61,311 nt of DNA from an uncultured Candidatus Saccharibacteria bacterium (lineage in GTDB: Bacteria; Patescibacteriota; Saccharimonadia; CAILAD01; BJGX01). A model generated the notes under the pieces. It searched no databases, was not told where the DNA came from, and saw only the letters and a program-made list of their open reading frames with translations. The translations under genes were made by a program, and so were the position numbers. The stretch covers positions 1-61,311 of the forward strand of contig CAZWVB010000001.1 of NCBI GenBank assembly GCA_964637185.1, given 5' to 3'. Numbering within the stretch: position 1 is the first letter of the stretch; every line of letters starts with the position of its first letter. Shown here one piece after another: positions 342 to 53,939 of the stretch.

Positions 342-1658
342 ATGAAGCTTCATATACCCAAACTTTCGGGCAAGAAAAAGGCCGGTAAATCGGCAGCCAA
401 GTCTGACGAACCTCAATATCTAGTATCGCTTGATATTGGTACAGAGTATGTCAAGGCGTTGATTGGGCAGGTGATGAGCCAGAAAGATCCCAAAACAGGC
501 AAGCAGCGTGAGGTAGTACAAATAGTGGGCGCGGGCAAACAGCGTCAGCGGCTGACTGATATGGCAGGCGGGGCAGTGACTGACATTGCCGGCGTGGTGG
601 AGAACTGTGATGCCGCACTACGCCAGGCCGAGGAGATGGCCGGTATAGTAGCCAAAGACACCGTAGTAGGTATCGCAGGTGAGCTAGTGCGTGGTGGTAC
701 CACGGCTGTTAGCTATCGCCGCAACAAGCCAGATATCAAGATCGATCAGCAAGAGTTGATGGACATAGTCGAGCGTATTCAAAAACAAGCCTTCGATGAA
801 GTGCGCAAACAGTTGAGCTGGGAGACCGGCAACAACGAGCTGGAGGTCAAACTAGTCAATGCTGCTATCGTCGATGTCACCATCGACGGCTATCGGGTAA
901 CCAATCCGGTTGGGTTTCAGGGGCGTGATGTGACTATCCAAGTCTTCAATGCCTTTGCACCGATGGTGCATCTGGGCGCACTGCAGACAGTGGCGGCTGA
1001 TCTGGATCTCAATCTAGTCAATATCGCAGCCGAGCCATTTGCGGTGGCCAAATCAGTTGGTACAGATGATAGTACAGAATTCAGTGCTATTTTTATCGAC
1101 ATCGGTGGTGGCACCTCTGATATCGCGGTGGTCAACAATGGTGGTGTCGAGGGTACACAGATGTTTGCTATCGGTGGACGTAGCTTTACCAAGCGGCTGG
1201 CCAACGAGTTTGGGATAAGTTTTGATGAAGCTGAAGAGCTCAAACTCAAGCATGCTGCCGGTAAGCTTAGCGAAACCCAGTCTCGTCAGATCACCAAAGC
1301 GCTGGACACTGATGTTGAGACTTGGCTAAGCGGCGTGGAGTTGGCACTAAGTGAGTTTGACCATCTGGAGCATCTACCTACTCGTATTATGCTTTGTGGT
1401 GGTGGCTCAGGCCTGCCAGAGATCAAACACGCGCTCAATGAAACCGACTGGCACAAAGGTTTGCCATTTGTACGCAAGCCCAACATAAGTTTTGTGATGC
1501 CCAAAGATGTCAATCACGTGGTGGATAATACCGATAGTCTAGATAGCCCGCAGGATATTACCCCGATGGGATTGGCCAATCTCGGACTGGATGTGGTGGG
1601 TAGTGAATCAATCGGTGAATCAGTTCTGCAGCGGTTGAGTCGCACACTGTCTCTATAA
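342..1658 (+). CDS. FtsA-like actin-fold ATPase
   Basis: VSLDIGTEYVKALI phosphate-1 motif, IFIDIGGGTSDI, AEELKLKH, LCGGGSGL; extended -10 TGgTACAAT at 324-332. Confidence 0.85.
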   Translation: MKLHIPKLSGKKKAGKSAAKSDEPQYLVSLDIGTEYVKALIGQVMSQKDPKTGKQREVVQIVGAGKQRQRLTDMAGGAVTDIAGVVENCDAALRQAEEMAGIVAKDTVVGIAGELVRGGTTAVSYRRNKPDIKIDQQELMDIVERIQKQAFDEVRKQLSWETGNNELEVKLVNAAIVDVTIDGYRVTNPVGFQGRDVTIQVFNAFAPMVHLGALQTVAADLDLNLVNIAAEPFAVAKSVGTDDSTEFSAIFIDIGGGTSDIAVVNNGGVEGTQMFAIGGRSFTKRLANEFGISFDEAEELKLKHAAGKLSETQSRQITKALDTDVETWLSGVELALSEFDHLEHLPTRIMLCGGGSGLPEIKHALNETDWHKGLPFVRKPNISFVMPKDVNHVVDNTDSLDSPQDITPMGLANLGLDVVGSESIGESVLQRLSRTLSL

Positions 1659-47397: not shown

Positions 47398-48410
47398 TCA
47401 CTCAGCCAGTTGAAGATCAAAAACAGTGGGATGAGTTTGTATCAAAGCATCCAGAAGCAAATTTTCTCCAGTCTTGGCAATGGGGTGAGTTCCACGCTGC
47501 AATATCGCATCAAATCGTCAGGCTGGGATTTTGGCAGGGTGACAAATTGATTGGCGTCTGCCTGGGGGTTGTGGAGCCAGCACGTCGCGGGCGTTACTTG
47601 TCGATAGCAGGAGGGCCTGTCTTGGATTGGCATCATCATGCGTTGGTGGATGCCTGGTCCAAAGCAGTTCGTGAAGTTGCAATTGATCACCAGTGTGTAT
47701 TTGTCAGAGTCAGACCACAGCTGTTGAGTGATGAATTCTCTAAAGCACTATTTGAACAGATGGGCTTTCGTGGGGCGCCTATGCATTTGTCAGCTGAGCT
47801 CACTCACCAACTTGACCTAAGAAAAACAGAAGACGAGCTATTGGCTGGCATGCGCAAACAGACTCGTTATGAGATACGTAAGGCTGGCAAATTGGGGATC
47901 AAACTCAAAGAGTCGACTAGCCAGAAGGATTTGCGTGGGTTTTACGATTTGCAAATCGAGACTGCAAAGCGCCAGGGATTTGTGCCTTTTAGCTATGATT
48001 TTTTGTATGAGCAGTTCAAAACTTTTGCTAGGTCCAACATGGTCAAACTCTACAGTGCCTACTATGACGACAAGTTGTTGGCACAAGCCTTTGTGATTTT
48101 CTATGGTGCGGAGGCGGCCTATCACTATGGCGCCAGCACTGATCTAGGTCGCAAGTATCCTGGAGCCTATGCCATTCAGTGGCAGGCTATTTGTGAAGCC
48201 AAACAACGTGGCATAGAGCGCTATAATTTCTGGGGAGTGGCACCACACGACGAGCCCGAGCATCGTTTTGCCGGGGTTTCACTGTTCAAACGCGGTTTTG
48301 GTGGTCAAGATGTCGAATATCTGCATGCTCAAGACTTAGTAGTCAACAAAACTCGCTATGCTATCAACCTTGCCGTCGAAAAAACCCGCAAACATTTGCG
48401 TCGCGTGTAG
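47385..48410 (+). CDS. FemABX-family peptidoglycan interpeptide aminoacyltransferase
   Basis: NFLQSWQWGEF, MRKQTRYEIRKA, YHYGAS, YNFWGV, FKRGFGG. Confidence 0.9.
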   Translation: MSAIITQPVEDQKQWDEFVSKHPEANFLQSWQWGEFHAAISHQIVRLGFWQGDKLIGVCLGVVEPARRGRYLSIAGGPVLDWHHHALVDAWSKAVREVAIDHQCVFVRVRPQLLSDEFSKALFEQMGFRGAPMHLSAELTHQLDLRKTEDELLAGMRKQTRYEIRKAGKLGIKLKESTSQKDLRGFYDLQIETAKRQGFVPFSYDFLYEQFKTFARSNMVKLYSAYYDDKLLAQAFVIFYGAEAAYHYGASTDLGRKYPGAYAIQWQAICEAKQRGIERYNFWGVAPHDEPEHRFAGVSLFKRGFGGQDVEYLHAQDLVVNKTRYAINLAVEKTRKHLRRV

Positions 48411-48428
48411 CTTTAGCAATTCCATTTC

Positions 48429-48458
48429 TTGACAAGAGCCGTCACATGGGAGTATCGT
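48429..48458 (+). promoter_or_regulatory. Promoter of the leuS leader
   Basis: TTGACA-N18-TATCGT. Confidence 0.65.
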
Positions 48459-48468
48459 TAAACACGTT

Positions 48469-48543
48469 ATGTTTTATACTATGCTCAACTTGCTAGGTTT
48501 GTTGTTGCTGCCACAGGCGGTTGAGATTCGTGTAAATCAATAA
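48469..48543 (+). CDS. Leu-rich leader peptide (MFYTMLNLLGLLLLPQAVEIRVNQ)
   Basis: 7 Leu within 9 codons, followed by terminator/antiterminator, upstream of leuS. Confidence 0.75.
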   Translation: MFYTMLNLLGLLLLPQAVEIRVNQ

Positions 48544-48566
48544 CTGATAAATTGCATCGAACGCCC

Positions 48567-48591
48567 AACCGCCAACAGATGGCGGTTTTTT
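48567..48591 (+). terminator. Attenuator terminator
   Basis: AACCGCCA-ACAGA-TGGCGGTT-TTTT; the 5' arm can alternatively pair with GGCGGTTG (48516-48523). Confidence 0.8.
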
Positions 48592-48859
48592 CGTATATCT
48601 CAATCAGCTTCGGAGTTTCCGAGGCTGATCAGGGCAAACGACGACCAGGAGTAAGCCATGCAACTATTTCTAGAACCGGGCGGTGTGCCACCAGAGCAGG
48701 ATCGTCCCAAGCCGCCGCAATATCCGGGGCCCAACCACCCAGACGGTCCGCTGCCGTACGCATGAACGCCCTTGCCGGGTACTGGTCTTGGGTGGCTGCT
48801 GCCACCCAAGACCATGCCTGGACCAAAAAACCTATTTATCTGATAAAATAAGTACAACC

Positions 48860-51769
48860 ATGAAAAAATACGATCCATCACAAATCGAGCCCAAGTGGCA
48901 GCAGATCTGGGCCGACAACAATATGTACCAGGCTGTCGACGGCGACAAGTCGGACGAAAAGTATTATGTACTGGTAGAATTTCCTTATCCATCCGGCGAC
49001 GGTCTACATGTTGGCCATGTGCGTAGTTTTACCGCCCAGGACGTGGTGGCGCGCCGGCTGCGTATGATGGGCCACAACGTTATGTATCCGATGGGCTGGG
49101 ACGCTTTTGGGCTGCCAACCGAAAACTTTGCTATCAAGAACAAAATCAAACCACAAGTAGCTACCGCCAGTAATATCGCCAATTTCAAACGCCAAATGCA
49201 GTCGCTGGGGCTCAGCTTCGACTGGAGCCGCGAGATCAACACTACTGATCCTCAGTATTACCGCTGGACCCAGTGGATTTTCTTGCAATTGCTCAAAGAA
49301 GGTCTGGCTTATCAAAAAGAAATTGCTATCAATTGGTGCCCGCATTGCAAGACCGGCCTGGCCAACGAAGAAGTGGTCAATGGCTGTCATGAGCGCTGTG
49401 ATACTCCGGTGGAAAAGCGCCTGCTCAAACAGTGGCTGCTCAAAATCACCGCCTATGCCGATCGATTGATCGAAGACCTTAAGACTGTCGACTACCTACC
49501 GCAAGTTGCGACTCAGCAAGTTAATTGGATAGGCAAAAGTTATGGCGCCAAGATTAACTTTGCAATAGATGGGCACAGTGAGAAAATCGAGGTCTTTACG
49601 ACTCGTCCTGACACGCTTTTTGGAGCTACTTTTATTGTACTTGCGCCAGAACATCCGCTGGTAGAGGTGGTCACTACCGAAGCCCAAACCGAGTCTGTAG
49701 CTAGATATGTCCAAAAGGCTAAATCACGCAGCAATGTTGACCGCATGGAGGAGGCCACCAAGACGGGTGTGTTTACTGGCGCCTATGCCGTCAATCCAGC
49801 CACCAAAGAAAATATTCCAATCTGGGTGGCAGACTATGTGCTGATGGATTATGGCACCGGTGCGATCATGTGTGTGCCAGCTCATGACCAGCGTGACTTT
49901 GAGTTTGCGCAGAAATTTGGGTTGCCGATTCGTAATGTGATCAATCCTGTGGCAGTACGTGATGATGCCAAAGATAAAAAAACTGATCTGACAAAAAGCA
50001 AAATTGTGGCCGTTGTTACAAATGACGATGGTGAAATGCTTACTATCAACTGGGGCCCCAAAATGGGGGGTCGTCTATTTGTTGGCGGTACAGCCGAGGA
50101 CAGTGAATCTCCTCAGCAAACTGCTTTGCGGGAGGTCGCTGAAGAAACCGGTTATACGGATCTTTCGGTGATTGCAGTGGGTGATGAGACATTTTTCTAC
50201 AAATATTTTGCTTTTTCCAAGCAAGAAACTCATGAGATAGATACCAAGTTTGTACTTCTAAAACTCAAATCCGATGCCCAAGTAGAACAAAAATTGGACG
50301 ACTCGGAAAAAGGTAAATTTACAGTCGAGTGGGTCAGTCGAGATCAGGCAGTCAAGGAAGTAGTCGAACCGCTTCATAAATACGCACTGGATAAGTTTGT
50401 ATTGGATGTCGTCCATGCCGGCGATGGTATGCTGACCAACTCGGGTAAGTTTGACGGTATGTCCGCGGAAGCCGGTAAAAAGGCCATAATTGAATGGTTG
50501 GCTAAAAAAGGTATTGGTGAGCAGCAAGTCCAATACAAGCTGCGTGATTGGATCTTCTCGCGCCAACATTACTGGGGCGAGCCGATCCCAGTGATCCATT
50601 GTGAGCAATGTGGCGTAGTGCCAGTACCGGAAGATCAACTGCCGGTAGAACTGCCCGATGTTGAAGCCTATGAGCCGACCGACACCGGCGAGAGCCCACT
50701 GGCCAATATCACCGATTGGGTCAACGTAGATTGTCCGAGCTGTGGGGGCAAGGCTCGGCGTGAGACTGATACCATGCCCAACTGGGCAGGTAGCAGCTGG
50801 TACTATCTGCGTTATATCGATCCGCACAATGACCAGGCTTTGGCCGATCCTAACAAACTCAAATATTGGCTGATGGTGGACCTCTACAACGGCGGCATGG
50901 AACACACCACACTACACCTACTCTACAGCCGTTTTTGGCACAAGTTTCTTTATGACCAAGGTGTAGTACCCACGCCAGAGCCCTATGCCCGCCGCCGTAG
51001 CCATGGCATGGTTTTGGCTCACGATGGTGTGAAAATGAGCAAATCTAAGGGCAATGTCGTCAATCCTGACGATGTGGTGGCCAAGTTTGGTGCTGATGCG
51101 CTGCGTGTCTACGAACTCTTCATGGGCCCGTATGACCAAGCGATTGATTGGAGTGACGACAAGCTGGCTGGTATCTACCGCTTTCTCAATCGAGTTTGGG
51201 ACTTGCAGCAAACTATATTATCGACCAACGAATCGGGCGGAACAGGCTCGGCGGAAGATGGTGTTTTTGAGACCGAAGTGGATCAGATGGTGCACAAGAC
51301 TATCAAGAAAGTTGATGAGCGCCTGGCCCGGCGTGATTTCAATACCATGGTGTCAGCACTTATGGAGCTGGTCAATTTTTTGACCACCGAAGAGGTCAAA
51401 AACAAATTGGCCAATCCGCGATTCAAAGACTTGGCGGAGCGTACTATGAGGGCGTTGAGCTTGATGTTGGCACCCAGCGCGCCCCATATTGCCGAGGAGT
51501 TGTGGGAGCAGCTAGGTAATACTGAGAGTGTACATCTGCAGACATGGCCCAAGTACGATCCCGGACTAGTCAAAGATGATACTATGACTATCATAGTGCA
51601 GGTCAATGGTAAATTGCGCGGTGAGTTTGTAGTGGAGGCGGGCACAAGTCACGATGACATCGAGCGCGAGGCCAAGATCAAAAACGACGAGCTCAACTGG
51701 ACTGGCGATACTGAGATAGTAAAAACAGTTGTGGTGCCTGGCAAATTAGTCAACTTCGTTACTAAATAA
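48860..51769 (+). CDS. leuS: Leucine--tRNA ligase with Nudix insertion
   Basis: FPYPSGDGLHVGH, GWDAFGLP, TTRPDT, LRDWIFSRQHYWGEPIP, KMSKSKGN. Confidence 0.97.
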   Translation: MKKYDPSQIEPKWQQIWADNNMYQAVDGDKSDEKYYVLVEFPYPSGDGLHVGHVRSFTAQDVVARRLRMMGHNVMYPMGWDAFGLPTENFAIKNKIKPQVATASNIANFKRQMQSLGLSFDWSREINTTDPQYYRWTQWIFLQLLKEGLAYQKEIAINWCPHCKTGLANEEVVNGCHERCDTPVEKRLLKQWLLKITAYADRLIEDLKTVDYLPQVATQQVNWIGKSYGAKINFAIDGHSEKIEVFTTRPDTLFGATFIVLAPEHPLVEVVTTEAQTESVARYVQKAKSRSNVDRMEEATKTGVFTGAYAVNPATKENIPIWVADYVLMDYGTGAIMCVPAHDQRDFEFAQKFGLPIRNVINPVAVRDDAKDKKTDLTKSKIVAVVTNDDGEMLTINWGPKMGGRLFVGGTAEDSESPQQTALREVAEETGYTDLSVIAVGDETFFYKYFAFSKQETHEIDTKFVLLKLKSDAQVEQKLDDSEKGKFTVEWVSRDQAVKEVVEPLHKYALDKFVLDVVHAGDGMLTNSGKFDGMSAEAGKKAIIEWLAKKGIGEQQVQYKLRDWIFSRQHYWGEPIPVIHCEQCGVVPVPEDQLPVELPDVEAYEPTDTGESPLANITDWVNVDCPSCGGKARRETDTMPNWAGSSWYYLRYIDPHNDQALADPNKLKYWLMVDLYNGGMEHTTLHLLYSRFWHKFLYDQGVVPTPEPYARRRSHGMVLAHDGVKMSKSKGNVVNPDDVVAKFGADALRVYELFMGPYDQAIDWSDDKLAGIYRFLNRVWDLQQTILSTNESGGTGSAEDGVFETEVDQMVHKTIKKVDERLARRDFNTMVSALMELVNFLTTEEVKNKLANPRFKDLAERTMRALSLMLAPSAPHIAEELWEQLGNTESVHLQTWPKYDPGLVKDDTMTIIVQVNGKLRGEFVVEAGTSHDDIEREAKIKNDELNWTGDTEIVKTVVVPGKLVNFVTK

Positions 51770-53839: not shown

Positions 53840-53939
53840 CTTTGCACAACCAGCAGCAGTTGGTAGTTGTTTAGTTTTCTGTCTTACTTAATATTTGTTT
53901 GGATTGCCAGTCTGATAGGCTATCCCATACAATATACTA

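Follow-up and report, generated by a model that had tools for sequence, protein, structure and literature searches.

The leader region upstream of leuS

The stretch of DNA analyzed here, referred to below as the window, comprises 61,311 nt of contig CAZWVB010000001.1 (GenBank assembly GCA_964637185.1; positions 1 to 61,311 of the forward strand) from an uncultured Candidatus Saccharibacteria bacterium. On its plus strand, upstream of the leucyl-tRNA synthetase (LeuRS) gene leuS, positions 48429-48592 hold a promoter, a small open reading frame (ORF) rich in leucine codons and an intrinsic terminator, and segments of the ORF can pair with the terminator. We consider it highly probable that this region is a classical ribosome-mediated (leader-peptide) transcription attenuator that senses charged tRNA-Leu. 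It combines a leader ORF, Leu-codon enrichment, an intrinsic terminator, a covarying antiterminator and a first pairing region, within the ORF, that sequesters the second. The attenuator was proposed in a sequence-only reading of the window, the coordinates of which all proved correct when the sequence was re-checked. Its parts are as follows.

48429 to 48458, plus strand: promoter P1, with TTGACA at 48429-48434, an 18-nt spacer and TATCGT at 48453-48458
48469 to 48543, plus strand: leader ORF (sORF1), ATG at 48469 and TAA at 48541-48543, 24 codons, MFYTMLNLLGLLLLPQAVEIRVNQ
48484 to 48489, plus strand: region 1, CTCAAC (Leu-Asn codons), pairing partner of the 3' part of region 2
48508 to 48525, plus strand: region 2, CTGCCA (2a) and GGCGGTTGAG (2), the antiterminator strand within the ORF
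48566 to 48592, plus strand: regions 3 and 4, an intrinsic terminator with stem AACCGCCA/TGGCGGTT, loop ACAGA and a T-run

P1 matches the promoter consensus at 10 of 12 bases in a consensus scan. In the 15 relatives whose sequence extends far enough upstream, a -10 element of the form TAnnnT sits 6-10 nt before the leader start codon, and the -35 element is exactly TTGACA in most, with a one- or two-base variant in genomes G001, G005, G006, G014 and G023. sORF1 starts about 10 nt past the -10 and has no Shine-Dalgarno (SD) site; given the short distance and the absent SD, its transcript should be leaderless, beginning at or just before the AUG.

Seven of the 24 codons of sORF1 specify Leu (in order CTC, TTG, CTA, TTG, TTG, TTG and CTG), and across orthologs Leu accounts for 30% of leader codons versus 9.7% in the genome's long ORFs. 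All 20 orthologs retain the reading frame and the place of the start codon, with indels only in multiples of three; the leaders range from 17 to 26 codons and from 5 to 10 Leu codons. The three codons preceding an invariant Pro encode Leu in 19/19, 18/19 and 17/19 sequences; each of these positions is spelled by two to five synonymous codons, and the Pro itself by all four Pro codons. Summed column entropies for codon positions 1, 2 and 3 of the leader are 20.9, 11.9 and 18.1, the second position being the most conserved. All six Leu codons occur in the leaders, and the genome has five tRNA-Leu genes. The Leu positions appear to be maintained as codons and not as nucleotide sequence. In a scan of the same genome, other modules of promoter, mini-ORF and terminator included no clearly amino-acid-biased leader. 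A further genome scan, for promoters followed by a start codon, led into a long ORF in 25 of 101 cases versus 43 of 263 in the control, a modest enrichment that is not used as evidence here.

The GC-rich terminator stem consists of 8 bp between AACCGCCA (48567-48574) and TGGCGGTT (48580-48587), and its tail of six T residues ends at about 48591-48592. Within the ORF, GGCGGTTG (48516-48523) is complementary over 8 nt to CAACCGCC (48566-48573), which shares the 5' arm of the terminator. A further helix, between CTCAAC (48484-48489) and GTTGAG (48520-48525), completes the 1:2 / 2:3 / 3:4 design, and in the minimum-free-energy fold CUCAACU.GCU (Leu-Asn-Leu-Leu codons) is paired with GGCGGUUGAG. 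Such an arrangement is singular in the genome: among 66 strict terminators (a perfect stem of at least 7 bp plus a T-rich tail), the leader's own is the only one with an upstream complement to its 5' arm (perfect, at least 7 nt, 25-110 nt upstream).

To test covariation, 19 sequences were aligned by plain MAFFT. The antiterminator (region 2 with 3, and 2a with 4), which the RNAalifold consensus also shows, is paired in 92% of cells; the observed score was reached by none of 500 shuffles, and slid controls were 22-55% paired. The corresponding figures are 96% for the terminator helix and 90% for helix 1:2, in which one pair is CG in seven sequences and UA in four. Twelve sequences have GC at pair 55-115 and seven have AU, with GGCGGTT changing to GACGGTT alongside a change of AACCGCC to AACCGTC; in the ORF this is a non-synonymous change from Ala to Thr, compensated in the 5' arm of the terminator. 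At pair 51-127, the Pro wobble base meets the nucleotide 5' of GGCGG, and five pair types are seen (GC, AU, UA, CG and UG), the T-A variant arising in two separate genera. The predicted helices 1:2, 2:3 and 3:4 all carry compensatory changes. Since only one of the 66 terminators has such a complement, and since compensatory changes accompany it in the 19 orthologs, the complementarity of ORF and terminator arm is more than chance. Both the Leu run and the pairing are conserved across the orthologs.

These elements suggest the following mechanism. Transcripts from P1 would start at or a few bases from the AUG of the 24-codon leader ORF. When a ribosome reaches the stop codon, or when none loads, region 1 (CUCAAC) would pair with region 2 (GGCGGUUGAG), regions 3 and 4 would then make the U-tailed terminator, and transcription would end at about 48592. 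Under scarcity of Leu-tRNA, a ribosome would stall at the early Leu codons and occupy region 1; region 2 could then pair with region 3 (CAACCGCC), with CUGCCA free to pair with the 3' arm, so that the terminator would be blocked and RNA polymerase would continue. The read-through RNA would carry a first conserved hairpin and then an SD-led second small ORF (sORF2).

We examined this logic by folding the RNA with a masked ribosome footprint that extends 15 nt to the 5' side and 9 nt to the 3' side of the first A-site base. At equilibrium, the window's terminator forms with a probability of 0.67 in free RNA, at most 0.01 with the ribosome on Leu codons 1-4, 0.79-0.94 with it on Leu codons 5-7 and 0.93 with it at the stop codon. 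Most of the 20 orthologs folded in this way behave alike, and four are intermediate.

The sequence-only reading had described a promoter followed by a 24-residue Leu-rich peptide, a complementarity between 48516-48523 and 48566-48573 next to a U-tailed terminator, and two mutually exclusive structures following the logic of ribosome-mediated attenuation. The promoter match and the seven Leu codons bear out the first of these, and the complementarity is exact, with compensatory pairs in the 19 sequences. Mutual exclusivity is upheld by the shared arm and the covariation, and the attenuation logic agrees with the conserved frame, the synonymous Leu codons and the three covarying, exclusive helices.

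Occurrence in related genomes

The window belongs to an 832-kb genome that is 93% complete, and its closest LeuRS relatives carry the labels Candidatus Saccharibacteria or Patescibacteria. BLAST with the 450-nt spacer gave no match outside the genome itself in 40 relatives. Because the element is too diverged for BLAST, we used a codon-degenerate pattern and a covariance model built from 12 sequences to survey a family sample of 31 genomes. The pattern, written for LNLLGLLLPQAV, had 8 matches in the 31 genomes and its reversed control had none. The covariance model returned one strong match per genome in 16 of the 31, from eight genera, together with one weak match in one genome of a second family. 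A first set of leuS loci (LeuRS 40-61% identical), dominated by other families and Firmicutes and mostly with short spacers, had suggested that the element is limited to one genus, which the pattern search overturned.

Within the family the module is always found in the neighborhood of leuS, and of the 19 orthologs with a contig long enough to include leuS, 18 have it next to that gene and on the same strand. Where the contig permits, the order is a -35 and TAnnnT -10, the Leu-rich ORF, the U-tailed terminator, a hairpin, an SD-led small ORF, a long hairpin, TAnAAT and leuS. Contigs of the same species (L083-L091; LeuRS at least 90% identical) and of a sister species (L092-L096; LeuRS 71% identical) share the synteny and the long spacer. 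In their alignment, the ORF has lost 3 nt in frame and changed synonymously, so that it reads MIVYILNLLGLLLPQAVRVRVDR; the terminator is kept, and a change of GGCGGTT to GGCGGTC is paired with one of AACCGCC to GACCGCC.

Another genome, G008, has a weaker match to the same covariance model (L139, G008:C1:601243-601366) that consists of a putative leaderless ORF, MIQFLQSSVTKYSYRAYGGIFCYR, with four Tyr and two Phe in a KYSYRAY..CY pattern. GGCGGTA within this ORF is complementary to TACCGCC of a U-tailed terminator, and the gene immediately after the element encodes a 338-aa chorismate mutase/prephenate dehydrogenase (Pfam CM_2, PDH_N). The arrangement resembles a tyrosine-sensing attenuator on the same scaffold, its Tyr-rich leader suggesting that the lineage uses the design with other regulatory codons.

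The region between the terminator and leuS

The gap of 268 nt between the terminator and the start of leuS is occupied by a conserved small ORF, a pair of hairpins that are also conserved, and another promoter-like element:

48603 to 48629, plus strand: read-through hairpin, ATCAGCTTCGGA, loop GTT, TCCGAGGCTGAT
48647 to 48765, plus strand: SD (AGGAG, 48647-48651) and sORF2, from ATG at 48658 to TGA at 48765, 35 aa
48775 to 48821, plus strand: long GC-rich hairpin with a 14-bp perfect core (48783-48814) and no U-tract
48841 to 48849, plus strand: promoter-like P2, an extended -10 TGaTAAAAT, 10 nt before the leuS ATG
48860 to 51769, plus strand: leuS, encoding a LeuRS of 969 aa with a NUDIX insert, according to its translation and the Pfam content of its homologs

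Examined for a tie to Leu, the gene directly 3' of the terminator is sORF2, and leuS lies beyond it with a -10 of its own. The read-through hairpin occurs at the same position in nearly all orthologs, with arms that differ yet are complementary (for example, TCAG...CTGA versus TCGG...CCGA). The product of sORF2, MQLFLEPGGVPPEQDRPKPPQYPGPNHPDGPLPYA, ends in HPDGPLPYA. Conservation of sORF2 is at the protein level: most orthologs have, after the terminator, an SD-led small ORF with PDGxLPYA at its C-terminus and a length of 34-65 aa by the start codons chosen. Its Leu content is 3.4%, versus 9.7% genome-wide. In other genera (the L108-L138 set), the sORF2 orthologs carry a QAES motif 28-29 residues from the C-terminus, and the copy in the window is short and lacks QAES. 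A peptide stretch as long as that from QAES to the end would about span the ribosomal exit tunnel. In genus g2, three genomes (L113, L114, L132) have an extra 85-aa ORF (ORF85; MRDLRPEIH...DAEHHL) between sORF2 and leuS; in G011 and G022 the start of ORF85 overlaps the stop codon of sORF2 (ATGCCTAA). Neither sORF2 nor ORF85 matches a Pfam family. A third ORF in the window (48762-48851), ATGA-coupled to sORF2, was considered as a gene or translational relay and rejected, as it is not conserved as an ORF outside the genus.

A close strain (L087-L090; LeuRS variant P0127, 10 contigs) has lost 114 nt (48686-48799) through a natural deletion between two TGCCACC repeats. Most of sORF2 is missing from this strain, as is the 5' arm of the long hairpin, and what is left is a fused ORF of 22 codons.

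The long perfect hairpin is present at this position in nearly every ortholog, with stems that are wholly different yet complementary. About 50 long perfect hairpins without U-tracts (stems of 11-16 bp) occur in the genome, mostly in intergenic regions and many within 80 nt of a gene end; examples (G000) are found at C1:6835-6871, 147151-147184 and 221209-221244. Because this class sits mostly at gene ends, the long hairpin before leuS may mark the end of a transcript, and the 66 U-tailed terminators and these approximately 50 hairpins may be two classes of 3'-end signal in use.

P2 has counterparts throughout the orthologs: a TAnAAT lies 6-13 nt before the leuS ATG in 18 of 19, including the window, and in those 18 leuS has no SD. 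In the exception, G017, leuS is SD-led, and the -10 precedes a leaderless ORF of 34 codons, which begins like leuS (MNNK...) and whose end overlaps the start of leuS (TAATG). In G005 (L133, G005:C4, locus 524-1360, plus strand), a convergent 278-aa prephenate-dehydratase-like (pheA) gene is situated between the long hairpin and leuS. The long hairpin thus stands between two convergent genes, and the only promoter-like site for leuS is TGaTACAAT in a 72-nt divergent spacer. From these arrangements it is very likely that P2 is a genuine promoter, and it follows that the module can persist without co-transcription of leuS.

Judged by position, the direct target of the attenuator would be sORF2, to which Pfam assigns no function, and we take leuS to be transcribed mainly from P2, with read-through from the attenuator at most adding to it. 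The sequence-only reading had the element controlling leuS. The part of that claim which places a Leu attenuator in the neighborhood of leuS stands; control of leuS itself is called into question by the position of sORF2 as the first gene, the long hairpin, the -10 of P2 and the pheA insertion in G005. A functional link with leuS is indicated by the co-oriented adjacency of module and gene across genera and by the deletion strain, in which the attenuator is left directly upstream of leuS. Attenuator control of leuS is therefore best described as plausible but not established, and that read-through matters for leuS in this organism is a possibility toward which we are slightly skeptical.

The stronger version, in which the attenuator is the main control of leuS, the read-through RNA is the principal leuS mRNA and TAnAAT is an A/U-rich region for SD-independent initiation, appears doubtful to us. 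It would account for a module that keeps to the strand and side of leuS in all of the 19 orthologs except G005, sensing of Leu suits LeuRS, and Streptomyces offers a precedent for leuS. Moreover, a long hairpin without a U-tract may terminate poorly, folding of the long RNA predicts no structure around the leuS start, and the deletion strain retains only approximately 155 nt between terminator and leuS. However, the -10 motif is fixed in its distance from an SD-less leuS ATG, with a spacing like that of the leader ORF and its full consensus promoter. In G005, where leuS is separated from the module and retains only the -10 in the 72-nt spacer, P2 would suffice, and in the three g2 genomes the long hairpin still ends the sORF2(-ORF85) unit, like an operon-end element.

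It is unlikely, more so than the preceding version, that the real target is sORF2 as a microprotein, made only at low Leu-tRNA and acting on LeuRS or on translation, or arresting its own ribosome. If this were true, a Leu-auxotrophic episymbiont would possess a two-tier response to leucine starvation without co-transcription of leuS, as G005 suggests.

Whichever gene is gated, several points weigh against ribosome-mediated attenuation at this locus. Transcription starts, termination and read-through are all predicted from the sequence, as are leaderless initiation, ribosome stalling and the extent of the transcripts. The folding model is one of equilibrium and not of co-transcriptional folding, so that it supports the logic without proving it; among orthologs the terminator probability of free RNA varies from 0.0 to 0.98, and with the assumed footprint, stalling at the last and most conserved Leu codons favors the terminator. 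The sequences are kin, so that independent compensatory events are fewer than the counts given above, and much of the covariation may go back to a small number of them. Conservation of the peptide motif LNLLxLLLP[QK][AT]V exceeds what the counting of codons alone would demand; RNA pairing explains part of it and leaves room for a role of the peptide itself. Lastly, the proposed target, sORF2, is lost in the close strain through the 114-nt deletion.

The same conserved motif, on a transcript with a complete promoter and terminator, could suggest that sORF1 is a free-standing microprotein or small-RNA gene that gates nothing, its complementarity being incidental or serving RNA stability; trans-acting attenuator small RNAs and leader peptides such as rnTrpL and peTrpL are known (PMC7298713, PMC7968998). 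We regard this as very improbable, however, as ORF positions covary with both arms of the terminator, including the compensated Ala-to-Thr change, the hydrophobic stretch of about 10 residues is too short to span a membrane, Leu is kept by codon identity, and the same downstream unit always follows the element. There is equally little chance that the hairpins are switched by a protein, uncharged tRNA or small ligand with the ORF untranslated: the leader lacks an SD, its translation is deduced from sequence, and T-box elements do control leuS in Firmicutes (PMC1262725), but no T-box or other Rfam family matches here, the frame is kept with indels only in threes, the spacing between -10 and start codon is fixed, synonymous variation at Leu and Pro codons is a coding signature, and the G008 match has Tyr in place of Leu codons before a tyrosine-pathway gene. 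Attenuation by a translating ribosome thus remains the reading we favor.

Upstream of the locus, a DegT-type aminotransferase gene is followed by a FemAB-family gene (ending at 48410) and then by the 449-nt spacer before leuS; downstream of leuS come, in order, L32, NusB, Nudix, RNase III and SMC. The NUDIX domain inserted inside LeuRS (window 49960-50400) has an intact Nudix box; PF00293 is present in most of the nearest LeuRS homologs and missing from a subset of approximately 820 aa, and a separate Nudix gene lies three genes 3' of leuS. The SMC gene starts 6 nt past TTGCCA-18-TACAAT (window 53903-53939) and is another apparently leaderless gene in the window.

Leucine physiology and relation to known attenuators

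Bacteria of the Candidate Phyla Radiation (CPR) have tiny genomes and few regulators and depend on hosts for amino acids, and next to nothing is known of their gene regulation. The 93%-complete genome has no LeuA-type (HMGL-like, PF00682) or LeuC-type (aconitase-family, PF00330) genes, whereas the same search had matches in 14 of 14 control genomes. The organism is likely a leucine auxotroph, in agreement with the auxotrophy assumed in the sequence-only reading. An Iso_dh-family gene (344 aa; G000:C15:321-1355, minus strand) is found beside pyrD-, pyrF/pyrE- and pyrB-like genes.

Our data suggest that at least one Saccharibacteria family monitors the charging of tRNA-Leu by means of the ribosome, through leaderless mini-genes, and the Tyr-codon element that precedes a tyrosine-pathway gene in G008 suggests a reusable scaffold. 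Annotation pipelines miss both the attenuator and the small ORF it would gate because the element is absent from Rfam. At the gathering threshold, no Rfam (15) family matches in the window, Leu_leader (RF00512) and T-box (RF00230) included, and with E ≤10 the only match in 48300-49000 is a chance one to a microRNA. Eight related loci gave two weak matches (tsr31 and Thr_leader), both in L114 and outside the module. The question of real interest concerns the role of sORF2 and its persistence beside leuS.

A literature search found no paper linking CPR or Saccharibacteria with attenuation or leader peptides, so the statement accompanying the original proposal that no description exists in CPR holds within the literature searched, while the same design was predicted for Streptomyces leuS in 2005 (PMC1262725). 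That study predicted classical attenuators upstream of leuS and trpS in Streptomyces (Seliverstov et al., 2005), and in S. lividans the LeuL2 leader has since been mapped as leaderless and followed by a hairpin and U-stretch (Droste et al., 2021; PMC8079986). The Streptomyces leuL2-leuS arrangement (MRAVRLLLSEPR) is the closest parallel to the element described here: both have a leaderless Leu-rich mini-ORF and a hairpin with a U-stretch upstream of leuS, and in both low Leu-tRNA would lead to more read-through. They differ in phylum, and the peptides, compared by eye, share the Leu run and nothing else obvious. Furthermore, the Saccharibacteria leader is twice as long, with its 5-10 Leu codons, and the locus has a small ORF, two hairpins and a second promoter between terminator and leuS.

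With pheM-pheST of E. coli and the enterobacterial leuL (RF00512), the element shares runs of regulatory codons and the three alternative helices, and pheM demonstrates that an aminoacyl-tRNA synthetase operon can be under leader-peptide attenuation (PMC1262725). Unlike the Saccharibacteria leader, which is predicted to be leaderless, those leaders are SD-led, and there the structural gene directly follows the terminator. A further difference from both is that the Saccharibacteria genome is without a leucine pathway and its leader has no Rfam match. The T-box of Firmicutes leuS (RF00230) likewise induces a synthetase gene in response to uncharged tRNA through a choice between terminator and antiterminator; in contrast to the present element, however, it reads the tRNA directly without translation, and the Saccharibacteria leader has no T-box match.

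Mycobacterial polycysteine sORFs offer another parallel, each being a leaderless mini-ORF rich in one amino acid that acts in cis on downstream genes. The cys leaders are mostly without a canonical terminator (PMC1262725), whereas the Saccharibacteria leader has a U-tailed terminator and a covarying antiterminator. Taken together, these comparisons place the element within a textbook mechanism that had already been predicted for leuS in Streptomyces, and its novelty is one of distribution and annotation, not of principle.

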